The notes: a model not told the origin generated them from the letters alone. A stretch of 32,000 nucleotides of DNA from Promethearchaeota archaeon (GCA_016933055.1 JAFGBS010000004.1:60001-92000), one strand, 5' to 3'. Counted from the first letter of the stretch, positions 16,718 through 30,602 are shown. Numbers and translations are program-made.

Positions 16718-17722
16718 TTGGAAATGAAAATGAACTCCCAAGTATGTCCTGAATGTGGATGCCCAATAGTATCGAATGGATATCAATGTATTTGCAGTGA
16801 ATGTGGACTGGTAACTCAAGAAAATTATTATCGATCAAGTTATCAGCTTTTTGAATTAAATTCATGCCATTTTAACCAAGGAAGACAATATGTCTCTGTA
16901 GGAAAGACTCTTGAGACCGTAGGCACGTTAGGGTCTTATATAGATTATGTAGATAGAAAAACAAATTTTATGGACATTAACGGAAATCCTGTGGCCACTA
17001 ATCTACAAGTGTTATACACACGATTAAAATCCAAGTATTCAAAATTTGCACGGGTAAAAAACCAAGAAACTAATTATCGAATAATGAATATCCTATCGGA
17101 TGTTATTCAGATTTTGCACTTAAATCAAATTGTTAGAAAAGATGCTGCCTATTATTTTCGAAAAATTAAATCGCTAAATAAAGTGATCCGAAATAATATT
17201 TCCTTGATTGCATTTTGTATATTTTTTGCTGTGCGAAATCAATATCATAATGCTCCTATTACAATTAATGATATTGCTGACACATTTCAACAATTAGGTC
17301 ACCGAGTCAATCCACGATTGATTCTTAGGGATGGAATTATATATAGAAAAATCTTACACAAACCTCAACCGCATAAGAGTGAGGATTATGTAAACCGACT
17401 AATAGAATGCGTGGTGAATTCCCCTGAAATCATTCAAAGGTTAAAAAAGAAAATCCCTCATATGTCTGTACAACGTTACCGATTAAATCTCTATAATCAA
17501 ACTATGGCGTTACTTAAAGAAATTACCATTTATCAAAGAGGAGGAAGAAATCCATTCATTTTTGCAGGTGCTTCAATTTATTGTGCCGATAAAATACTAG
17601 CGTCAAAATTGTGTTCTAAAAGTGTACTAACACAGAAATTAGCATCTAAAGCTATGAATATTGCTGAATACTCTATTAGAGATCACTATGTATCAGTGTT
17701 CAAAAGGTATTGCATCTACTAG
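16718..17722 (+). CDS. Divergent TFIIB/TFB paralogue
   Basis: Zn ribbon CPECG…CSECGLV; cyclin-fold repeats (…VRKDAAYYFRKI; GRNPFIFAGASIYCA); terminal HTH LTQKLASKAMNIAEYSIR; start may be ATG 16724 or 16730. Confidence 0.85.
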   Translation: MEMKMNSQVCPECGCPIVSNGYQCICSECGLVTQENYYRSSYQLFELNSCHFNQGRQYVSVGKTLETVGTLGSYIDYVDRKTNFMDINGNPVATNLQVLYTRLKSKYSKFARVKNQETNYRIMNILSDVIQILHLNQIVRKDAAYYFRKIKSLNKVIRNNISLIAFCIFFAVRNQYHNAPITINDIADTFQQLGHRVNPRLILRDGIIYRKILHKPQPHKSEDYVNRLIECVVNSPEIIQRLKKKIPHMSVQRYRLNLYNQTMALLKEITIYQRGGRNPFIFAGASIYCADKILASKLCSKSVLTQKLASKAMNIAEYSIRDHYVSVFKRYCIY

Positions 17723-19548: not shown

Positions 19549-19935
19549 TTAATGAATATGTAATTGAGTATGTAGTTTGTATATTTTTTCATATAATAAC
19601 AAGGCTTTTTCAATCAAGTTCAGCAATTTCTCTATTTGAAACGTGTCAGATTCTGCCAATAAGAGTGTATTAAATGTATCAATTTTTGAGTATAACGTAT
19701 TTAATATACTCGAGAAATCATGATGATATTTCGATGGGATCGAAATTTCATTTGATGGTGACTTGGATTCTTTTTGGATAACAATTTCACTATTACAAGA
19801 GGGACAGATTATCTTCTTGTTCGGAAGTCTATAAATTAATGTACCGCATTTTGGACAAGTTTTATCTAACATTGTTGCACCTTCTCGAAGGAGTTTGGCC
19901 ATTTTTTTAATTAGCATATCTTCATCTTTTTGCAT
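19549..19935 (-). CDS. UPF0148 / SSSCA1 (autoantigen p27) family Zn-finger protein
   Basis: IKKMAKLLREGATMLDKTCPKCG…KIICPSC signature. Confidence 0.88.
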   Translation of the reverse strand: MQKDEDMLIKKMAKLLREGATMLDKTCPKCGTLIYRLPNKKIICPSCNSEIVIQKESKSPSNEISIPSKYHHDFSSILNTLYSKIDTFNTLLLAESDTFQIEKLLNLIEKALLLYEKIYKLHTQLHIH

Positions 19936-21124: not shown

Positions 21125-22024
21125 ATGAAAAATTCAAGGTCACGAAAGATCGGAGTTTTTCTTATCATTTCCATACTTTTTAAGGGAAATTTGAATAATA
21201 GTCCGACATTTGTTACTGCACAACCTGGTTTATTCGGAGCTACCATCACACCGGAAAAATTCACTTACGTGATATATGAGGATATCATTGCAACCTTTAA
21301 TTTTTCTTCCCATATAACGGCTGAGGATTATTTCACATGTGCGTTGGCAGCAGATATCAGTTTTAATTCCATTATCGAGACTGAGCCCATTCAAGGCAAC
21401 TTTTCGATTTCACTTGAGTGCAGGTTTTCCCTCCTTTCTGTAAATTACAGTTATCAAGGGGATCAAAAAATTTTTTATCTCCTATTATATTACTATAATG
21501 ACGTATTTGGGAACGAAATATGCTGTAGTGAACAAATTATTCTCCAAAAAGCCGAGTTAACATGTAAGGGGCCAAGTAATTATACTGAAATCAAGCAAAA
21601 TTCTGATTATTTTTTTAATTTTCATTTTTATGATCCCTCTAACATAAGTTTTGTATTAGTTATGGGTACGGTAACATGCATATTTAAGATGAACAATCAA
21701 TATAGCAATGAAACTAACTTTCATACCAATCAATATGGTGTCATGTCCATATCTGTCCGCGTGAATAATTTCGTAGGATTCTACGACATTGACGTAATTG
21801 TCGACTCTAATAGGTATTTCCGTAGTTTAAAACAATGTTTTCGATTTAATGTGACCGATGTTTTCTCCTTCTCTCCAAAACCTCCTAAACTCAGAATATA
21901 TTTAACGATGAGTGCAGTGAGCCTTGGTCTCAGTGCAGTTTGTGCGTTTTTTATTTATTATTGTATAACTGTATACAAAAAGAAAATAAAAACGCGCTAC
22001 CAAATAAAAAATCTGAAGATATAA
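21125..22024 (+). CDS. Predicted surface glycoprotein (signal peptide, beta-rich ectodomain, C-terminal TM anchor)
   Basis: Basic N-terminus plus hydrophobic stretch; 8 N-x-S/T sequons; C-terminal TM followed by a lysine-rich tail. Confidence 0.7.
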   Translation: MKNSRSRKIGVFLIISILFKGNLNNSPTFVTAQPGLFGATITPEKFTYVIYEDIIATFNFSSHITAEDYFTCALAADISFNSIIETEPIQGNFSISLECRFSLLSVNYSYQGDQKIFYLLLYYYNDVFGNEICCSEQIILQKAELTCKGPSNYTEIKQNSDYFFNFHFYDPSNISFVLVMGTVTCIFKMNNQYSNETNFHTNQYGVMSISVRVNNFVGFYDIDVIVDSNRYFRSLKQCFRFNVTDVFSFSPKPPKLRIYLTMSAVSLGLSAVCAFFIYYCITVYKKKIKTRYQIKNLKI

Positions 22025-22026
22025 AA

Positions 22027-22338
22027 GGGTATATAGAACATATACCCGCCCTTTTGTCCATGTACTCGTTACCAAGAACACGGTTGAACATCAAACTTTT
22101 CGGTTTTGTCGGAACTTGGATTCCTATTTTCACTTACCTTTCTCAAGAGCCATAATTCGTTTCATATCGTGTATCAAACATTCAGTTTTTTCAACATCAT
22201 TCTATTTCGATACACAATTTCGTTTCTAGTATTATTGGATAGTTTTCACTATGACTGTTCCCAAATCGCTCTTTCCAAGTATGAGGGGCGAGGTTCCTCA
22301 TTATTAGATAATAACGTTAGTTCAATGTTCCTATACCC
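22027..22338 (-). ncRNA. rnpB: RNase P RNA
   Basis: Minus strand: P1 GGGUAUAGGAACAU/AUGUUCUAUAUACCC; P2 UUGAAC/GUUCAA; P4 GAGGAACCUCGCCCCU (22283-22299) pairing with ACAAAAGGGCGGG (22045-22057); AGAAACG and UGAAACG flanking a P12 helix; P7 AAGAGC/GCUCUU; P6 ACUUGGA/UCCAAGU; upstream TTTAAAT TATA-like at about 22361-22368. Confidence 0.92.
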
Positions 22339-22376
22339 ATACCTATCCATTCAACTTGAAATTTAAAGTTAATGAT

Positions 22377-22709
22377 CTACTTTAAGGTACTATAAAGAAG
22401 TTTAAGATCGGATATGATTTCTTGTCGCAATCGAATCACATCATCCACATCAATTTCTTCAGTTTGTTTAGCAGGATTTTTAAGTCTTATCACCGTACCA
22501 ATTGCTTCTACTTCTTTCATGTTGATTAAAAACTCTACTCCTACACCCTTTACGACCAGAATAATGTTAAGAGGATAAAATTGTATCTTGATATTCCGTA
22601 CCAAACCAACTTTCCGTGCCATGGAATCCACAACTTCTCTTCCCATTAACTTTCCAGGCATAGTTAATTCGTATAATTCCGTTTCAATAGTGTTTGATTC
22701 TGATGACAT
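22377..22709 (-). CDS. PRC-barrel domain protein
   Basis: LMGREVVDSMARKVGLVRNIKI…INMKEVEAIGTVIRLK pattern, plus C-terminal helix. Confidence 0.8.
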   Translation of the reverse strand: MSSESNTIETELYELTMPGKLMGREVVDSMARKVGLVRNIKIQFYPLNIILVVKGVGVEFLINMKEVEAIGTVIRLKNPAKQTEEIDVDDVIRLRQEIISDLKLLYSTLK

Positions 22710-22838
22710 TTTATCTAGATTGACATTTCTATACTTAAATTATTTTAGCCCCCTTTTCGAATAAAATTGATACAATGCCTCCTCTCTTTCCATTTTAAAT
22801 ATACCGACAAATATTATAATTGACCGGAGATCACAACT

Positions 22839-24035
22839 ATGGTGAATAAAAATTATCTCGAAGAAGAATTTCGAACGAGTAGTCTATTTCTCGATGAATC
22901 TGTTTTTGAATCCGAATACATTCCCAAAGTTATAAAACATCGAGATAACGAGTTAGTTTTTCTTTCAAGACTGTTCCTTCCATTACTAAGTCACCCCCTA
23001 AAATTTTCGAAAAAAATTCTCATCATAGGAAATGTAGGTGTCGGAAAAACTGTCACCATTGGCTATTTTGGGAAAATGATACAACAATCTGCTCAAAAAC
23101 GAAAACTAAATTTGAAATTCGTTCATCTCAATTGTAGACATAATCGGTCTAGTTCCCATATATTGAAAAAAATCGTAAATGAATTAGTGGGTGGTATACC
23201 AAACCGGGGATTGTCAAATCAAGATCTAATTGATATACTAGTCGAGTATCTTCAAGAACACAAATGCCATCTAATTCTTGTATTAGATGAATTAGGCTAT
23301 TTGATGAAAAAAGATTCTAATTTGATTTATACTCTATCTCGATTCAACGAAATGACTTTCTCTGAAGTGTCTCATTTATCTCTTATAGGAATTGTTAAGG
23401 ATTTGCTTACATTGCGAAACTTGGATAATGCTACTGTTAGTACCTTACAAAATGAAGTAATTCGTTTTAAGAAATATACTGAAAAGCAGATAATGGAAAT
23501 TTTACGCGATCGGGCAGAACTTGGTCTGAAACCTGGGGTTGTTGATGATTCTATTCTTTTTATTATTTCTTCGTTATCATCAATTTCAGGAGATATGAGA
23601 AAAGCACTGAATTTATTACGGAATGCGGTACGGTATGCTGAACATAATAAAATTGATTGTATAACGGCCGAAATCATTCAAATTGTTAATGCAGAATTCG
23701 AATCATTTAGTATTAATGAATTAACTAACTTAAATCGTCAAGTGTTATTATTATATAAATCCGTATGTAATTTACTCTCCGCTTCAAAATCTCAGATCAC
23801 TATGAATGAAATTAAGGAAGAGTATTTCGCTGTTTGTAAGCAACATAATAACCAACCACGATCTGACACTCAAATTTGGGGATACCTTCAACAGTTAAAG
23901 CGAGATCATCTACTCAGTATTAATTTTCGAAACAAGAATCAACAGGGGAGAAGATCCTATTATAGCATACCTCGCTTACCAGTAAAAACTATGTTAAAAC
24001 AAGTAGAGATGATCTTAGACCATTCAGAGGATTGA
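22839..24035 (+). CDS. cdc6: Orc1/Cdc6 replication initiator
   Basis: YIPKVIKHRDNE, Walker A GNVGVGKT, Walker B LILVLDELGYL, FKKYTEKQIMEILRDRA, GDMRKALNLL, C-terminal winged helix. Confidence 0.95.
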   Translation: MVNKNYLEEEFRTSSLFLDESVFESEYIPKVIKHRDNELVFLSRLFLPLLSHPLKFSKKILIIGNVGVGKTVTIGYFGKMIQQSAQKRKLNLKFVHLNCRHNRSSSHILKKIVNELVGGIPNRGLSNQDLIDILVEYLQEHKCHLILVLDELGYLMKKDSNLIYTLSRFNEMTFSEVSHLSLIGIVKDLLTLRNLDNATVSTLQNEVIRFKKYTEKQIMEILRDRAELGLKPGVVDDSILFIISSLSSISGDMRKALNLLRNAVRYAEHNKIDCITAEIIQIVNAEFESFSINELTNLNRQVLLLYKSVCNLLSASKSQITMNEIKEEYFAVCKQHNNQPRSDTQIWGYLQQLKRDHLLSINFRNKNQQGRRSYYSIPRLPVKTMLKQVEMILDHSED

Positions 24036-24340
24036 TAATAATAATGTATGAGGAAGGATCGAATGCTGAGATAAAATTAACACTCGAACAAGTATTTTCT
24101 TCGCGGGGCAGGGCGAAAATATTGGAGCTTTTAGCAAAAAAAACCGAATTGAACATATCAGAAATTGTAAAAAGAACCAGCTTGAACCACTCATCTGCTT
24201 CACGACATTTACATTCGTTGAGCAAATTAGGTTTCATTCAAGAAAAAAAATACGGTCGAATCAAAATCTATCGATATTGTAGTGAAAACATAAACGCCCG
24301 TGCACTTAAAAATTTGATAGCCCTGTGGAGTGAAAGTTGA
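24032..24340 (+). CDS. ArsR-like winged-helix DNA-binding protein
   Basis: FSSRGRAKILELL…LNISEIVKRTSLNHSSASRHLHSLSKLGFIQEKKYGRIKIY; overlaps the cdc6 stop. Confidence 0.88.
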   Translation: MIIIMYEEGSNAEIKLTLEQVFSSRGRAKILELLAKKTELNISEIVKRTSLNHSSASRHLHSLSKLGFIQEKKYGRIKIYRYCSENINARALKNLIALWSES

Positions 24341-24969
24341 TTGTGTATTGCTTTATTATGATATCTACACTTATTTTCCTTTTACATCTTTCATTGATTG
24401 ATGTAAGATATAATCGAATCAGTAATTTTGAGCTGATTCCTTTGTTTATGATTAGTATATATTCATTAATTTATCGTATAATATCTCAAGAATATAAACA
24501 AATTATTGTGTTTTTAGTAATTCAGACAATAATAAGCACTTATTTGTACGTTGCAAGATTTATCGGACCCGCAGATTATAAGATAATAATTGCTCTTTCT
24601 TCGATACTGGATCCCACTTCCTCTTATGGCATTACTTCAAATTTAGATGGAGTTCAATTTTATTATTATTTCATTTTGATTTTTTTATTTTTTTGTTCTG
24701 TTAGAATCCTCTTAAATAGAAAAAACGCTCGAAGATCAAAATATCTTCGAAATCCTTCACTAAATATGATGGAGATGTTATTCCTTTATTGTTTTTATCA
24801 ATTATCCAAGCTACAAAATTTACCTTCTGGTACCGTTTTACTATTAGAAATCAATTCCAAATTAATTTCAATACAAAATGCTCAAAAGATAAGTACATGT
24901 TGGGTTCGTCGTATAATACCAATTGTGCCATATATTGCATTAAGTCTAATTTTGACGATTTTTAGTTAA
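24337..24969 (+). CDS. Prepilin peptidase (A24 family aspartic peptidase)
   Basis: SLIDVRY and IGPADYK catalytic Asp motifs within TM segments; C-terminal IPIVPYI; TTG start. Confidence 0.85.
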   Translation: MIVYCFIMISTLIFLLHLSLIDVRYNRISNFELIPLFMISIYSLIYRIISQEYKQIIVFLVIQTIISTYLYVARFIGPADYKIIIALSSILDPTSSYGITSNLDGVQFYYYFILIFLFFCSVRILLNRKNARRSKYLRNPSLNMMEMLFLYCFYQLSKLQNLPSGTVLLLEINSKLISIQNAQKISTCWVRRIIPIVPYIALSLILTIFS

Positions 24970-24974
24970 TATAG

Positions 24975-25172
24975 CTACCCTTGAAATATACTCCAAAAAT
25001 CTGCGAGATTTCCTTGAGTCCATTCCAAAATGGAAGTTATTATTCCCGCGATAATCAAAAAGGCTATAATAGAAAATCCGACAATTAATCCATACTCTAA
25101 TAATGAACCTGCAGCATCTCCGGTGATGATATCTTCTCGATTGAATCGCGTTTTCGTCTTTCGATCTGACAT
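24975..25172 (-). CDS. Flp/Fap-like major pilin (65 aa)
   Basis: Hydrophilic leader, then DAA^GSLLEYGLIVG (E at +5, Y at +6), a 20-aa hydrophobic helix and a short C-terminus. Confidence 0.8.
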   Translation of the reverse strand: MSDRKTKTRFNREDIITGDAAGSLLEYGLIVGFSIIAFLIIAGIITSILEWTQGNLADFWSIFQG

Positions 25173-25198
25173 TTCACTCTTATATTAAGTAAATTCTA

Positions 25199-25229
25199 TA
25201 AAAACTCCTCAATGTAAAAGGGGTTTTTA
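25199..25229. promoter_or_regulatory. Imperfect 11-bp inverted repeat forming back-to-back TATA-like promoters for pilin and ATPase
   Basis: TAAAAACTCCT (25199-25209) / AGGGGTTTTTA (25219-25229), 10 of 11 match; each arm lies about 25-35 nt upstream of a divergent start codon. Confidence 0.5.
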
Positions 25230-25254
25230 TTATTTCTCATAAAATTAAGGTGAG

Positions 25255-27357
25255 ATGACTATAGAAATAAACTCAAAATTTACCATTCAAGAGGAATTTG
25301 GACTAAATCCTAAAAAACGAGTTGTACAAAATAATCTGAAAATGCATTGTAACAATTGCGATCACTATTCGATCCCACCAATAGGACGATATAAGAATAA
25401 TCTTATTTGTTTAGAGTGTGCATTATCTGCGATATGTTCACTACCAAAAGAAGTTCAAGTCGCTAAGATAGGTTTTGATGAAGATCTTTTCACTCCTAAC
25501 AAGGACAACCGGATATTAAAGAAATTAACACGATACTATAATTTATGGCTTAATGTAAGAGGTATTTCTCATATCAACGAAAAGAATGAGTGTGTTTTTA
25601 AAAACACTTCACAGTTTGATCATTTTCTTATTGACTTATGCCATTTTCAGCAGAATAAATCCCCGAAACCATGCAAGTTCTGTAAAAAAATACTTGAAAA
25701 AGCCCTCAAAAAAGAATTTATACTCAATTCCTTGATTTGTAATCTCCCCTTAGCAAGAGAATGGATAGGTGACCTAATATTCATTGGTCCATACAGTGTG
25801 AAAAACCAGATCCAGTTTCCATCGAATGACACAGAAATGGTGGAAGTTGCATCTTATGAAATTACCCTAAATTCTCTCTACACCATTATGGTATATAAAA
25901 AACATCTGATGGAATACTACATAGAGATTTATCATAATTTCGGTTCAAAATCAACAGAATTTTATAATACCATCATAAAACACGTATTAAATAATATTCC
26001 CGATTTAGAATTTACTCATCTACTCCCTATAGGGACGATTGTGGAAAAAACTGTCGTTCATATTTCGAATTATTTAAAATTGAACTATCATAATCTTGAT
26101 TCCAATGAAATTTGTAAATTAGCTCTATTTATTTCGCTAAAAAAACTCCGTCTCGGTTTGCTATTTCCCTTTTTAATTGACGACAATATTGATGAAATAT
26201 ATCTAGACGGCCCCCAAGACAAACTATATTTAGATCATCGAGATTATGGTCGATGCATGACATCTATTCGGTTGTCTGAAGAAGATATTGAAGCAATACA
26301 AACCTTTGTAAGGATTTCTAGTAATAAACGATTGGATTCAACAAATCCCACTCTCAAATGTTCGATTTCCAACCAATACTTTCATTGTAGATTTGCAGTA
26401 GATATTTCTCCCGGGGTTTTATCTGGATTTGCATTTAATATTCGGAAGATGAACAGAAAGATTTTTTCACTTCCAGAATTGATACATCGAGGCATGCTTT
26501 CAGCCCAAATGGGGGCTTTTCTTTATCTATGCGTAGAAAACAGAATAAACATTACCGTGGCCGGGGAAACCAATTCAGGAAAAACTACGCTGATTAACAG
26601 TCTAGATCTGTTGGTCCCTTCACAATCACGTAAAATATATGTAGAAGAATCACCAGAATCAATAGATCAGTCATTTACATACTGTCATCAACTTAAATAT
26701 CAAGTAGATCCCGTCAATATCAATTCTACGAAAACTACAGAAATATACAGATTATTACATAGAAATCCAGATGTCGTCTATTTAGGGGAAATTTTAACTA
26801 GAGAAGAAGCGCACGCAATGTTCCATTGTTTAAGTGCAGGGTTGAGAGGATTTCAAACAATACACGCAAGAGACTTAAACTCATTGTTAAACCGTTGGCA
26901 ATATCATTTTGATATTGATCCTGTTTGTTTTAATGATTTGGGGATCGTGATCGTGCTCAACCGTAGACTTATGAGAAGGCACATAACTGACATCGTCGAG
27001 ATTCACTGTACTGGAGGGAAAGTAATTCAAAATCCCATTTATAAATATAATCCTGAAACAACTTCATGGAATCCTCCCATAAGCTGGGACAACCTTAGAA
27101 TATTTCAACGTTTACTGCTACCTCAAAGAAAGATCGACGAAATGGATAAAAAACTTCATTTTTATGAAGAGGTTCTTAATGCTCTTTCTCAAAAACAGAA
27201 ATGGGATATAAAAGAACAGATACTTTTTTTCCTGATGATACAAGCAAAATTGAATAAATCAAATCTTATGGATAATTCAATTGATTGGGCAGAGATTAGA
27301 GCATTTTTGAAAGATTCACAAGCAGAACGGAGTAATGAGTCATGGGAGAAATTTTAG
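25255..27357 (+). CDS. Type II/IV secretion ATPase (TadA/CpaF/ArlI/VirB11 family) with long Cys-rich N-terminal extension
   Basis: IDEIYLDG, CRFAVD, FNIRK, Walker A GETNSGKTT, VEESPE, HRNPDVVYLGEI, FQTIHA His box. Confidence 0.92.
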   Translation: MTIEINSKFTIQEEFGLNPKKRVVQNNLKMHCNNCDHYSIPPIGRYKNNLICLECALSAICSLPKEVQVAKIGFDEDLFTPNKDNRILKKLTRYYNLWLNVRGISHINEKNECVFKNTSQFDHFLIDLCHFQQNKSPKPCKFCKKILEKALKKEFILNSLICNLPLAREWIGDLIFIGPYSVKNQIQFPSNDTEMVEVASYEITLNSLYTIMVYKKHLMEYYIEIYHNFGSKSTEFYNTIIKHVLNNIPDLEFTHLLPIGTIVEKTVVHISNYLKLNYHNLDSNEICKLALFISLKKLRLGLLFPFLIDDNIDEIYLDGPQDKLYLDHRDYGRCMTSIRLSEEDIEAIQTFVRISSNKRLDSTNPTLKCSISNQYFHCRFAVDISPGVLSGFAFNIRKMNRKIFSLPELIHRGMLSAQMGAFLYLCVENRINITVAGETNSGKTTLINSLDLLVPSQSRKIYVEESPESIDQSFTYCHQLKYQVDPVNINSTKTTEIYRLLHRNPDVVYLGEILTREEAHAMFHCLSAGLRGFQTIHARDLNSLLNRWQYHFDIDPVCFNDLGIVIVLNRRLMRRHITDIVEIHCTGGKVIQNPIYKYNPETTSWNPPISWDNLRIFQRLLLPQRKIDEMDKKLHFYEEVLNALSQKQKWDIKEQILFFLMIQAKLNKSNLMDNSIDWAEIRAFLKDSQAERSNESWEKF

Positions 27358-27746
27358 AAAGGGGATTGATGATCGGTTTTGGTCTGACAATCACAATCTT
27401 CTTATTTTCTGTATTTTCACCCGTTATCTCTTTAATATTCTCCGATGTATCTTCTATGGATCAATATGACATGTTTATTTTTACCATACAGTATGGCATA
27501 ACATACAATCCTCAGTATCCCGAAGAAGAATTATGTATCAATGCGTCCATATCCTTTGAAATCTCCTTGGAGGTGGAGGAAACAGATCAATTTTCCTATT
27601 TAACACTAAACACTAAATTTAAATCCATCACCTTTTTCAGCTCAAAATCAATTATTTTGCTAAATTATACCGTACAAGGGGATATTCAATGTATTTTCTA
27701 TTACCCATTGGATGCCATTATATTGAGTTTTTGGGAGAGGACTTAA
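27342..27746 (+). CDS. Pilin-like / minor pilin protein
   Basis: N-terminus MGEILERGLMIGFG mirrors the Flp pilin GSLLEYGLIVGFS; hydrophobic helix followed by a beta-rich domain; lies between ATPase and platform genes. Confidence 0.55.
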   Translation: MGEILERGLMIGFGLTITIFLFSVFSPVISLIFSDVSSMDQYDMFIFTIQYGITYNPQYPEEELCINASISFEISLEVEETDQFSYLTLNTKFKSITFFSSKSIILLNYTVQGDIQCIFYYPLDAIILSFWERT

Positions 27747-27791
27747 ATTCTGATATCAGCTCTTGCTAATTTTTATCGCAAACTCCCATTA

Positions 27792-29231
27792 TTGAAGCGA
27801 TTAAGACTAAAATCATTAAAACCAGAACTTCAAGAATTAATATATTTTGATTTCTCTATACAATCTGAACAAATTGCCTTAGGCTCCATAGTAATAAGCG
27901 GAATAATCACCCTCCCTTGCATCATTCTTTCCCTTATAGTGAATATTCCCAGACACTTCTTGGTGTTTCCTGGGATATTATTTTTTGGCATTAACATCTT
28001 TCTCCTTCATATTTATCCACGGCACTATCAGAAGCAGGCTGATGAAATCAACTCCCTCTTTCCCTTGTTTCGTAATTGTATTGAAATGTATTTATCCATA
28101 CTTCCAAAAGATCATGATGTATGTACGTTTTTGATCTCTTTTTTGGCAAGTATTCCTTCCCCTATCCAAGACACCTTTAAAAGAGTCCAACAATCGATTC
28201 AACAGGGAAATTTGCCAGAAAAGATTCTCCTTTCGTATAAGTGTCCCTCTTCGCTATTGGAAGAGTATTTAAAAGCATTGTTGCTTAGCAAGTATCATTC
28301 ACAAAAATCTTCTTTAATGTTAGACACTCCTTTAGAAAACCGTTATAAAATCTATTCCCACTCGTTGGAGAGTCGTATCAGCATTATTTTCTTCCTTGGA
28401 TTGTTTATTCCATTAGGATTTAGTTTAGGCGTGTTCTTACAGAAAATTAATGGGATCCTCCTTCTAAGCTCTTCCCCCATATTATTTATCCTCCTTCTTA
28501 TTTTAACTAGAAAAATCACAACAGACAATTTAATCTTACTTGGTACTGTTTCACGATCAAGCAAATCTTTAAAAATCGAGTACCTTGTTCTTTGGGATTT
28601 TTTTTACAGATTATCCACGAATTTAATGAATATGGCTCCTGAAACTGCGCTTATACAAGCAATAGAATCTACTAATCTTATCCAAAGTTCTGCTATTCGG
28701 AAATATTTGTATCAATTGAAATCATATACACTCCCATTAGAAGAATTTCTAAATAAATTTTATAAAACCCTACAAGGGGCACGAATTCGATTGGTTTTTT
28801 CAACATTGATATTCATGATAACCAGTAGCTGTGAAGTCACATCGGAAAAACTCTTCCAACTACTTCTGGTTTTAAAACATCACCGAGAATTAGAATCTCA
28901 GAGGCTCCAAACACTTAAGGGAGAGATGTTCAAAGTAAAATCGTTTCAGATTATCTTACCGATAATTATAAGCTTGATGACAACCTTGTTTCTGCTAATC
29001 TCCTCAAATATTTCCCCTTCTTCTTTCTTATTTTCTTTTTCCATGCCTTTGACAAATAAAATTCTTTTTTCTGTCAATCAACTGATTTCTGCTCATATAA
29101 GTATCTATTTTTTTCGGAGAGCCGTGGGTTTAAGATATTCGATGAGCACTATCATATATTGTACTGTTTTTTTCCTGTTAGTAGCCTTACTCGGACTTAT
29201 TTTATTTAATAAATTCCCTTTTGTCTTTTAG
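27792..29231 (+). CDS. Type IV pilus inner-membrane platform protein (TadB/TadC/ArlJ/GspF-like)
   Basis: Three TM blocks separated by two soluble helical domains (…EINSLFP…; …APETAL…); directly downstream of the ATPase; TTG start. Confidence 0.75.
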   Translation: MKRLRLKSLKPELQELIYFDFSIQSEQIALGSIVISGIITLPCIILSLIVNIPRHFLVFPGILFFGINIFLLHIYPRHYQKQADEINSLFPLFRNCIEMYLSILPKDHDVCTFLISFLASIPSPIQDTFKRVQQSIQQGNLPEKILLSYKCPSSLLEEYLKALLLSKYHSQKSSLMLDTPLENRYKIYSHSLESRISIIFFLGLFIPLGFSLGVFLQKINGILLLSSSPILFILLLILTRKITTDNLILLGTVSRSSKSLKIEYLVLWDFFYRLSTNLMNMAPETALIQAIESTNLIQSSAIRKYLYQLKSYTLPLEEFLNKFYKTLQGARIRLVFSTLIFMITSSCEVTSEKLFQLLLVLKHHRELESQRLQTLKGEMFKVKSFQIILPIIISLMTTLFLLISSNISPSSFLFSFSMPLTNKILFSVNQLISAHISIYFFRRAVGLRYSMSTIIYCTVFFLLVALLGLILFNKFPFVF

Positions 29232-29530
29232 AGAAAGATATTGGAGATAAGTTGAACTATAAATATTATACTCCACACAACCTTGAAAATGGTGCAAAAA
29301 TAATTTAATGCAAAATAAATACATATAATTTCACTTCCAAGATAATCAAGAATCGTGTTCAATTGATTTAGTAATCTATGCACAATGATAAATGAAAGAA
29401 TAAAAGGAACCGTAATAATAATGAACGCTATTATATCTGTTGAGCTTAAAAGAAATACCATACCTATAAGCCAAAATGAAATCAGAAGAGATAATTTAAA
29501 AAAAATATAAGATTCTGTAAACAATGTCAT
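29228..29530 (-). CDS. Small multi-pass membrane protein
   Basis: Highly hydrophobic 100 aa; co-oriented with the V4R genes. Confidence 0.55.
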   Translation of the reverse strand: MTLFTESYIFFKLSLLISFWLIGMVFLLSSTDIIAFIIITVPFILSFIIVHRLLNQLNTILDYLGSEIICIYFALNYFCTIFKVVWSIIFIVQLISNIFL

Positions 29531-29565: not shown

Positions 29566-30063
29566 CTATAATTCGACTTCTCGTTTTTCAATAAGAAATC
29601 TACATACGTCAGAGTCCGGATCAACAATTGAGCAATCTAATTCCTCTACTTTTACATTATATAGTGAAAAATCCCCGAAACCTGTCAATAGTCCACTTAG
29701 AAAGAAACAAATATCTTTCGAAAAACTACCCTCTTCTTGAGAAACATTATTTTTTAAATTGATAATCACCCGTTCTTCAGAGATTTCTTCGGCAGTGAAT
29801 AAACCCCATCCGGTCGCACTAATCATATCTAAAAAGAGTGTGGTTAATTCCTCAAGATTATTTGGACGAACATGTTCTTCCCAATTCTCTATCAATCTTC
29901 GCCCCATCTTTTTTCCTAGGTATTTAAGGAGCGGTTTCGATCCTTCTCCATAAATCTGACCTAATAAAGATATTATGTTAGGAGGGACAAACACAATTCG
30001 TTCTCCAAATAACTTTACAATTCCGTCTTTTGATTCTATACCCCTCATTCTAAAATCTTTCAT
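29566..30063 (-). CDS. V4R / TRAPP(Bet3)-like fold protein
   Basis: LKYLGKKMGRRLIE, GWG, ICFFLSGLLTG, EELDC…DVCRF motifs. Confidence 0.85.
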   Translation of the reverse strand: MKDFRMRGIESKDGIVKLFGERIVFVPPNIISLLGQIYGEGSKPLLKYLGKKMGRRLIENWEEHVRPNNLEELTTLFLDMISATGWGLFTAEEISEERVIINLKNNVSQEEGSFSKDICFFLSGLLTGFGDFSLYNVKVEELDCSIVDPDSDVCRFLIEKREVEL

Positions 30064-30080: not shown

Positions 30081-30602
30081 CTAACTGATAAATTCAAATT
30101 CAAAAACACATGGCTTTTGGGATTCCATCGAAATATCCGTCAATTTAGGAAACACCTCTGCGCCAGCAAATGCTAGAGATCCTAAAAAAATGCCACTATA
30201 TAAATTAGAAATGAGAGTAGCATCTTGTTTGGATTGTACCTCTTGCACGATGGAATTGAATACGGAAATCTTCACACTAGTATTCTCAATATAACTCATT
30301 TCAAATTTCCCATAACCCATATTCATCAAGTTCACTAACAATTCCTGAAAAAGTTGCTTTTTGGACTTTATTTTTCGGTTTTCTTGGATATTTTTACACA
30401 ATGCTTTTCCTATAGTTTTTCCCGTCCAAATTAAAATATCTTCTGATCCACTCCCTATTAGATCTCCTAGTTGAACCAAATCATAAGGACGCATTATCAC
30501 TAAAGCGAAATCCGTGTCTTTCAAGTAAATATGGGATTTATCAGAATCTAAAGAAATATTTTTAAGATTTTTTGAAGCCAATCGTCTAAACATTTGAACC
30601 AT
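30081..30602 (-). CDS. V4R / TRAPP(Bet3)-like fold protein, second paralogue
   Basis: WTGKTIGKAL, MGYGKF, LYSGIFLG, KPCVFEF; lacks some V4R cysteines. Confidence 0.75.
   Translation of the reverse strand: MVQMFRRLASKNLKNISLDSDKSHIYLKDTDFALVIMRPYDLVQLGDLIGSGSEDILIWTGKTIGKALCKNIQENRKIKSKKQLFQELLVNLMNMGYGKFEMSYIENTSVKISVFNSIVQEVQSKQDATLISNLYSGIFLGSLAFAGAEVFPKLTDISMESQKPCVFEFEFIS

Follow-up and report, generated by a model that had tools for sequence, protein, structure and literature searches.

Do Asgard archaea, the closest known relatives of eukaryotes, encode a type IV filament (T4F) machine of their own, and what is such a machine doing next to a gene for an Orc1/Cdc6 protein? The question is raised by a locus at positions 24337-29231 of a 32,000-nucleotide stretch of the genome of a Promethearchaeota archaeon (GCA_016933055.1, JAFGBS010000004.1:60001-92000; this whole stretch is the window, and positions are counted from its first nucleotide). 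Models of eukaryogenesis turn on how these archaea make contact with partners and surfaces, and a recent census of archaeal T4F systems reported that an ordered T4F locus is rare in Asgard genomes (PLoS Genet 2026; PMC13705601). An initial annotation of the window described a complete minimal pilus set here, and all five components, a peptidase, a prepilin, an ATPase, an accessory protein and a membrane platform, are indeed found at the positions it gave, in what is a Lokiarchaeial genome. We consider it probable that the locus encodes a functional machine for a thin, Flp-like filament and that it represents an Asgard-specific T4F family. For the Lokiarchaeia the locus shows the opposite of what the census found, a compact, complete and conserved set, of which the pilin and the platform escape standard models; a search of the literature turned up no paper describing the locus or its link to cdc6.

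The four core parts of a T4F system are present and intact within 5 kb. The first gene (24337-24969, plus strand) encodes a class III signal (prepilin) peptidase of the A24 family, 210 amino acids (aa) long, which PF01478 matches at 36.8 bits against a cut-off of 26.5 bits; 12 of 14 aligned orthologues match the same profile on their own. D22 and G77-x-x-D80-x-K82 are the sole invariant columns of this alignment, and we take D22 and D80 to be the catalytic aspartate pair known from the A24 family. The peptidase is the only A24 match in the source genome (G000), an assembly of 3.76 Mb in 36 contigs that is 91% complete. Convergent with its gene, and with 5 nucleotides (nt) between the two stops, lies the gene for a headless, Flp-like prepilin of 65 aa (24975-25172, minus strand), recognised from its sequence together with its family alignment. 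The prepilin reads ...DAA↓GSLLEYGLIVGF..., that is, a basic leader, one hydrophobic helix and a short tail, with no globular domain. Cleavage at DAA↓GSLLEY, as predicted from the pattern of the sequence, would put a Glu at +5; this Glu is invariant among 13 family members from several Asgard classes and, if it is taken as +5, residue -1 is Gly or Ala and residue +1 is Gly or Ser. A profile search returned 106 relatives, and those with a source name are all from Asgard archaea (Loki, Hel, Odin, Jord, Frey and Atabey), several of them having been named automatically by NCBI or the Joint Genome Institute (JGI) as 'Flp family type IVb pilin' or 'Flp pilus assembly pilin'. As a separate observation on these genes, a tandem word, GTTTAGTTTAAAA, precedes the start codon annotated for the pilin in 14 of 21 loci (L054-L108) and is probably a TFB recognition element (BRE)/TATA element plus an extra repeat; the window has GGAGTTTTTATAG instead.

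The pilin gene is divergent from the ATPase gene over 82 bp (25173-25254), a region that presumably holds promoters for both and that includes a GGTGA ribosome-binding site before the ATPase ATG. The ATPase itself (25255-27357, plus strand) is a 700-aa secretion ATPase of the PilB/ArlI/TadA superfamily, matched by PF00437 over residues 382-549 at 61.2 bits, and the residues of its Walker A, Walker B and His-box motifs do not vary among 19 sequences. A homologue search with the ATPase brought up Asgard orthologues only. Among PDB structures it is closest to A. fulgidus GspE (AfGspE, 2oap) with 99.7 bits, ahead of S. acidocaldarius FlaI with 80.8 bits and CpaF with 42.1 bits. It falls short of every curated NCBIfam equivalog, scoring 99.5 bits against a cut-off of 550 for FlaI (NF058587), 74.6 against 373 for the TadA-family model TIGR03819 and 54.7 against 1000 for BasE. 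Outside the core the protein has a C-terminal tail and, over residues ~1-230, a family-specific N-terminal domain with a zinc ribbon, CxxC...CxxC (Cys32, 35, 52 and 55), whose cysteines are conserved in 75-90% of 20 orthologues. A search of the ESM Atlas with this domain gave no fold match and only weak leads, for example PilB3_N at 0.77. The gene that follows overlaps the end of the ATPase gene by 16 nt and encodes a pilin-like accessory protein of 134 aa, acc134 (27342-27746, plus strand), recognised by the start motif of its family: acc134 begins M-G-E-I-L-E-R, and the start shared by 20 orthologues is M[TSG][NE][IL][LI]E[KR]. It cannot carry a leader peptide because there is an in-frame TGA two codons 5' of its ATG, and removal of the Met would set its Glu at +5. 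In the structural model residues 2-51 form a helix, the first ~30 residues of which are confident.

The last component, a polytopic membrane protein of 479 aa (27792-29231, plus strand), had to be recognised by fold and by a transitive profile link; its alignment is without any conserved stretch of 7-10 columns. An AlphaFold model built from 19 orthologues has a predicted local distance difference test score (pLDDT) of 81.9 and a predicted template-modelling (pTM) score of 0.69. Against the ESM Atlas this model matches, at a template-modelling (TM) score of 0.69 over 436 residues, an archaeal cluster that is 100% PF00482. Foldseek found nothing in the PDB at E<=0.001, and VIA-align as well as the Atlas were needed; an exhaustive comparison with the PDB placed at the top the N-domain of PilC (2whn_B; Z 7.2, 99 of 103 residues), the PilC model 3jc8 and SpoIIIAB, with EpsF (2vma; Z 6.2) next. 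Such Z values are middling among helical proteins, yet the rows agree, each of them spanning a whole domain. The profile of the platform family reaches just 216 cluster representatives among 1.84 billion; among its weaker members are P0255, which carries the JGI name TadC and with 31.8 bits exceeds the cut-off of PF00482, and P0266, with 21.9 bits. Taking together the fold match in the Atlas, the domain rows from the PDB and the profile link through P0255, we read the modelled platform as a very divergent, fused double T2SSF protein (TadB+TadC/ArlJ-like).

Family profiles run over the source genome found each part in single copy, and the locus is the only T4F set, and holds the only true T4F ATPase, found there. 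Archaellin (PF01917), Pilin_N and Flp_Fap profiles had no matches in the genome, and a motif scan of it for further prepilins with Glu at +5 gave one convincing case, the pilin of the locus. That the system is not an archaellum, as had been stated in the initial annotation, agrees with the absence of PF01917 archaellins from the genome and with the score of the ATPase far below the FlaI cut-off, and the archaellum was rejected on these two grounds. A second T4F system was considered and rejected as well: the only other PF00437 match above the Pfam cut-off in the genome is a PIN-domain and PilT-like ATPase of 631 aa (G000:C15:75764-77659; L002:712-2607), unrelated to pili, whose gene adjoins that of a tRNA-intron endonuclease.

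Comparison of synteny across Asgard genomes, which had been suggested as a check on the annotation, covered 20 loci with wide flanks and 80 species loci from GTDB representatives, and the gene families are grouped in these ~100 fetched loci; because the order is conserved across them, chance is excluded. Within the order, ATPase orthologues occur in 31 of 41 related genomes, and the 5 searched genomes without the ATPase are also without an A24 peptidase. Upwards of 70 Lokiarchaeial species, P. syntrophicum and L. ossiferum among them, have these genes grouped. The arrangement is colinear in the family to which the window belongs, for example pil> CDC6> wH> Pep> ATP> acc> PLAT> (G009 and G010: L. 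ossiferum and P. syntrophicum; Pep is the peptidase, wH a winged helix-turn-helix gene, PLAT the platform), and in the large sister family it is ATP> acc> PLAT> V4R> Pep< wH< CDC6<; one local inversion explains the two. The order ATP-acc-PLAT-(V4R)-Pep-wH-CDC6 is kept in most of the 80 species loci despite an ATPase identity of ~40%. Beyond the order, a phylum-wide census found the platform family in 153 of 301 sampled Asgard genomes, either fused or as two adjacent genes, the latter being frequent outside the Loki order (~240-290 aa each). Such split pairs adjoin an orthologous ATPase gene, scoring 406-522 bits to the profile, in L137, L139, L140 and L143, and in L137, L139 and L140 there is alongside them a pilin of 61-68 aa reading ...G[S/P][P/L]LVEEGL....

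Some loci in this comparison are of note in their own right. A second copy of the module, in the order Pep> PLAT> acc> ATP> followed by TFB-like genes, is present in some genomes of the sister family (L121, L129, L105 and G015:C16). In two genomes of one genus (G031 and G034, 93-95% complete) the cdc6 orthologue, peptidase, ATPase, platform and V4R genes are all absent together, which may reflect deletion of the whole block or an unassembled region. In a 1.4-Mb Asgard genome of another class, a ParA/MinD-type ATPase (L137:13723-14388, minus strand) is encoded two genes beyond the pilus ATPase; it is reminiscent of TadZ/CpaE, or of the FleN/MinD regulators found in some T4F loci of archaea, and the window's locus has none.

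RNA evidence comes from the orthologous locus of L. ossiferum (L028), for which contigs from four metatranscriptomic runs of one study were examined. The four runs hold 55-82% of the sampled words of this locus. One identical RNA contig carries the pilin gene, cdc6, the winged helix-turn-helix gene and the first part of the peptidase gene (L028 5297-7236), and another carries the ATPase and acc genes (L028 7612-9993). Cover over the middle of the peptidase gene, a skipped repeat, and over the platform gene, where it is fragmentary and low, is uninformative either way. Contig depths vary up to ~80-fold along the locus, and a neighbouring RNA whose depth exceeds 10^4 was identified as RNase P RNA (RF00373, 77.3 bits); uneven depth and abundant RNase P RNA fit real RNA rather than DNA carry-over.

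These parts suggest a simple scheme for how the machine could work. The 65-aa prepilin would be inserted in the membrane, where the A24 peptidase would remove its basic leader of ~21 residues at [D/E]-x-[G/A]↓[G/S]-S-x-x-E, leaving a mature subunit of ~44 residues that would consist of hardly anything but a single hydrophobic helix, Glu being at +5. A hexameric ATPase, using its N-terminal zinc-ribbon domain and its core to dock on the T2SSF domains that the fused platform has in the cytoplasm, would drive subunits from the membrane into a thin, Flp/Tad-like fibre. Leaderless acc134, for which processing would not be needed, would probably serve as a minor or priming subunit or as an anchor similar to ArlF/G. 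The filament might serve in adhesion or cell-cell contact.

How closely is this machine tied to the genes upstream of it? A string of overlapping genes is headed by an orc1/cdc6 paralogue (22839-24035, plus strand; 398 aa, TIGR02928 250 bits), continues with a gene for an ArsR/IclR-type winged helix-turn-helix (wHTH) protein (24032-24340, plus strand; 102 aa, PF09339 and PF01022) and ends with the peptidase gene. The 4-nt overlaps reported for both junctions, each of them TTGA, are real provided that TTG starts are used; with the alternative starts (ATG 24044 for the wHTH gene, GTG 24343 or ATG 24358 for the peptidase gene) the distance to the upstream stop is still <=21 nt, and the peptidase gene is physically coupled to cdc6-wHTH. 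The broader claim, that the pilus system as such is attached to the cdc6 operon, has to be narrowed to the peptidase, whereas the pilin gene is on the minus strand and the ATPase, acc134 and platform genes have a presumed promoter region of their own, the 82 bp. The gene layout thereby suggests three transcription units, cdc6-wHTH-peptidase, pilin alone, and ATPase-acc-platform.

Nor does the partner in this coupling look like the replication initiator that the initial annotation took it to be. The genome has three Orc1/Cdc6 paralogues, as do most of its relatives. One of them (G000:C6:227954) scores 296 bits to S. solfataricus Orc1-1 (2qby_A) and 269 to A. pernix ORC1, whereas the copy at the locus scores 118.8 bits to the same Orc1-1 and has as its best PDB match P. 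aerophilum Cdc6 (1fnn, 134.8 bits); the third paralogue scores like the locus copy. Judged by these scores, the locus Cdc6 is a non-canonical paralogue and not an initiator of the Orc1-1 type. A replication origin at the locus was also considered and rejected: 21900-25300 is free of ORB-like repeat families, and the skew does not turn anywhere in the window.

Orthologues of the locus Cdc6, at 32-62% identity, are found in most genomes of the order, and in related loci the wHTH gene always directly follows cdc6. What this constancy means can be read in more than one way. The adjacency of cdc6 may be inherited gene order around a conserved chromosomal block and functionally meaningless, an alternative that we take seriously although we lean somewhat against it. 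A TFB paralogue (~50% identity, just beyond cdc6) and a gene for a p27-like protein lie near the block in 56 and 59 fetched loci, so that a wider block of TFB paralogue, p27-like gene, cdc6 and wHTH gene is syntenic in 56-59 loci. In the window these neighbours are a divergent TFB paralogue, a candidate regulator (16718-17722, plus strand; PF00382 20.6 bits, below the cut-off), and a p27-like zinc-ribbon protein (19549-19935, minus strand). The neighbourhood also includes a radical-SAM enzyme gene, which is conserved and unrelated, and because unrelated conserved genes share the neighbourhood the linkage may be partly plain synteny; the single inversion that accounts for both arrangements is in keeping with this. 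Moreover, three genomes of a sister family retain cdc6-wHTH without an A24 peptidase or a T4F ATPase anywhere, and since the pair persists in such relatives it is independent of the pilus. Against inherited order speak the 4-nt overlaps, which put the peptidase gene in the same transcription and translation unit as its neighbours, the survival of the overlapping cdc6-wHTH-peptidase string at a peptidase identity of only ~20-30%, and the recurrence of the linkage in other classes (L137 and L143), where cdc6-wHTH lies within 3-5 kb of the ATPase gene with unrelated genes (Urm1 and S17e) in between.

The same linkage, read in the opposite sense, raises the possibility of a machine for DNA exchange or the response to DNA damage, under the control of the Cdc6 paralogue together with the wHTH protein, perhaps joined by the nearby TFB paralogue, in the way that Orc1-2 and TFB3 govern Ups pili and the Ced importer in Sulfolobales; its filament would serve cell aggregation or DNA uptake instead of general adhesion. 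There is a precedent in S. islandicus, in which Orc1-2 binds the motif ANTTTC in the promoters of the pilus and Ced genes upsA, upsE and cedA1 and of tfb3 (PMC6061795). The likeness is that a type IV pilus is linked to an Orc1/Cdc6 paralogue which does not act as the main initiator, with involvement of a TFB paralogue. For the Asgard locus it would draw on the conserved, translationally coupled cdc6-wHTH-peptidase string, on the apparent non-initiator character of its Cdc6, on the 3-5 kb between cdc6-wHTH and the ATPase gene even in other Asgard classes, and on the TFB paralogue as a conserved neighbour; in other classes TFB-like genes adjoin ATPase, platform or pilin genes (L143:8265-9281 and L139:14513-15523; also L121 and L129). 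However, the regulon in Sulfolobales is experimental and what is seen here is mere gene adjacency, neither the type of pilus nor its pilins are related to those of Ups, and ANTTTC is not enriched 5' of the pilin (21), ATPase (78) or cdc6 (57) genes, its counts being within ~1.6 standard deviations of shuffled sequences. The three genomes that keep cdc6-wHTH without the pilus genes and the unrelated conserved genes nearby (the p27-like zinc ribbon and the radical-SAM enzyme) count against this reading too, and no HerA/VirB4/Ced-like gene was seen in the annotated part of the window (~16.7-30.6 kb). On balance we regard a DNA-exchange machine as unlikely. We think it most likely that the Orc1/Cdc6 paralogue and its wHTH companion regulate by binding DNA, or else that they are just conserved neighbours, and we do not take either for a part of the machine; judging from the sequences, their control of the locus is possible, and the coupling of a peptidase gene to a non-initiator Orc1/Cdc6 could mean that such paralogues act as regulators outside Sulfolobales. 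A different word does recur 5' of cdc6: ACTCTGT, in the context AAAAATTAnTACTCTGTATTTTATTATAAA, is found ~50-70 nt upstream in 35 of 57 sister-family promoters (L056-L130), where shuffled sequences lead one to expect 0.2. The window's own copy of cdc6 does not have it in its promoter, and promoter words are not common to cdc6 and pilin genes.

To return to the filament machine itself, the locus would on the best reading of its features lie closest to the Tad and Epd systems and to Makarova's subclade 4D. With bacterial Tad/Flp systems (type IVc) it shares a headless pilin of very small size, whose cleavage site is of the G/A kind and which has Glu at +5, followed in the window by Tyr at +6; a short A24 peptidase without a methyltransferase domain; one ATPase, with no separate retraction ATPase; and a platform of two T2SSF-like halves, which are encoded by separate genes in other Asgard classes. 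It differs from them in that the ATPase is closer to AfGspE and FlaI than to CpaF and fails the TadA model, that the window has a single fused platform gene in place of TadB and TadC, that there is no secretin, no TadZ and no leader-bearing TadE/F pseudopilin, and that the Flp_Fap profile misses the window pilin. Epd, the 'system 1' of Methanococcus maripaludis, is likewise an archaeal T4F with a headless major pilin and a dedicated peptidase (PMC13705601, PMC6668835). Its platform of two genes is matched by the split forms of other Asgard classes, but it has many pilins and an operon of 11 genes, as opposed to one pilin, one leaderless pilin-like protein and a set of five genes here. The substrates of EppA feature Gln at +1, whereas the predicted +1 residue is Gly or Ser in all 13 aligned pilins.

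The likeness to 4D is of a different kind. In Pyrobaculum and Thermoproteus, the ATPase of 4D bears an additional N-terminal domain rich in cysteine, its membrane protein is perhaps a diverged TadC, and its operon includes a TFIIB homologue, the function of 4D being unknown (PMC4858521); the families are arCOG05558 for the ATPase and arCOG05557/13890 for the membrane protein, and the census describes it as a subsystem of ATPase and platform without pilin, possibly a remnant (PMC13705601). The Asgard ATPase similarly has an N-terminal domain with conserved cysteines, a likeness of features drawn from these papers and not a shown homology to arCOG05558. Its membrane partner is likewise too diverged for T2SSF models, that of 4D being only a suspected TadC, and TFIIB-like genes are found in or near the locus. 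In contrast to the pilin-less 4D, however, a conserved prepilin and peptidase are present here, the ATPase keeps its C-terminal tail, and in the window the TFB paralogue is found 7.6 kb upstream.

Several points weigh against a functional filament machine. None of the cultured Asgard archaea has a filament that has been attributed to these genes, and 4D, the published group closest in features, has been suggested to be repurposed and not a pilus (PMC4858521, PMC13705601). Pfam has no match for the platform, and PF00482 matches nowhere in the genome. PF04964 (Flp_Fap) does not match the window pilin at E<=1; it matches 5 of the 13 aligned family members weakly (best E 0.023) and is precomputed for 3 database relatives. 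The beta-rich remainder of the acc134 model is of low confidence (mean pLDDT 57.7) and too poor for a fold search. As for expression, the RNA contigs come from a single study in which DNA carry-over is possible and a single transcript is not provable, and the evidence is confined to the L. ossiferum orthologue. That the locus encodes a T4F-derived machine with no surface filament, either a pseudopilus for secretion or for the handling of membranes or vesicles or a device repurposed as proposed for 4D of Thermoproteales, is nevertheless very improbable: its 4D-like features (the N-terminal Cys-rich ATPase domain, the partner that escapes T2SSF models and the TFIIB-like genes nearby; PMC4858521) and the fact that thin filaments in cultures are not tied to these genes speak for it, but a peptidase with intact Asp residues and an E+5 prepilin, both under selection across classes, are hard to explain without polymerisation of the pilin, and a pseudopilus would in any case still be a T4F filament.

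If the locus does make a thin fibre, there may already be a candidate for what it looks like. Electron cryotomography of N. marumarumayae, a cultured member of the Promethearchaeaceae, has revealed extracellular fibres of ~3 nm for which the authors thought that there is no dedicated machine (bioRxiv 10.1101/2025.07.22.663070). As the locus is present in cultured species, it provides a concrete and testable candidate for such unexplained thin surface fibres. A bolder proposal would be that the module is an Asgard-wide machine for the ~3 nm fibres, switched by the Orc1/Cdc6 paralogue and the wHTH protein and perhaps by a private TFB; we put this forward as an improbable speculation, and indeed as a longer shot than the DNA-exchange machine, but, if true, it would mean that in the prokaryotes most closely related to eukaryotes the state of the cell cycle or of DNA damage is linked to contact between cells.

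Downstream of the platform gene the window holds further genes on the opposite strand. An open reading frame for a hydrophobic protein of 100 aa (29228-29530, minus strand) overlaps the platform stop by 4 nt; it has no relative among the first 20 related loci searched and may not be a gene. Beyond it lies a gene for a V4R-like protein of 165 aa (29566-30063, minus strand), for which the V4R and DUF2507 matches in Pfam are weak. This gene is duplicated in the window (the second copy being at 30081-30602, minus strand) and convergent with the platform gene, and in ~60 sister-family loci a V4R-like protein is encoded between the platform and peptidase genes, on the strand of the platform. At the other end of the block, in several genera of the window's family, the archaeal RNase P RNA gene is found directly 5' of the pilin gene, as at L028:4944-5226 (minus strand) in L. 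ossiferum. Default annotation misses this RNA because its 77.3 bits are just under the Rfam gathering score of 84, and the corresponding regions of L029, L041, L042, L027, L030 and L136 could be aligned with 67-77% nucleotide identity across genera.

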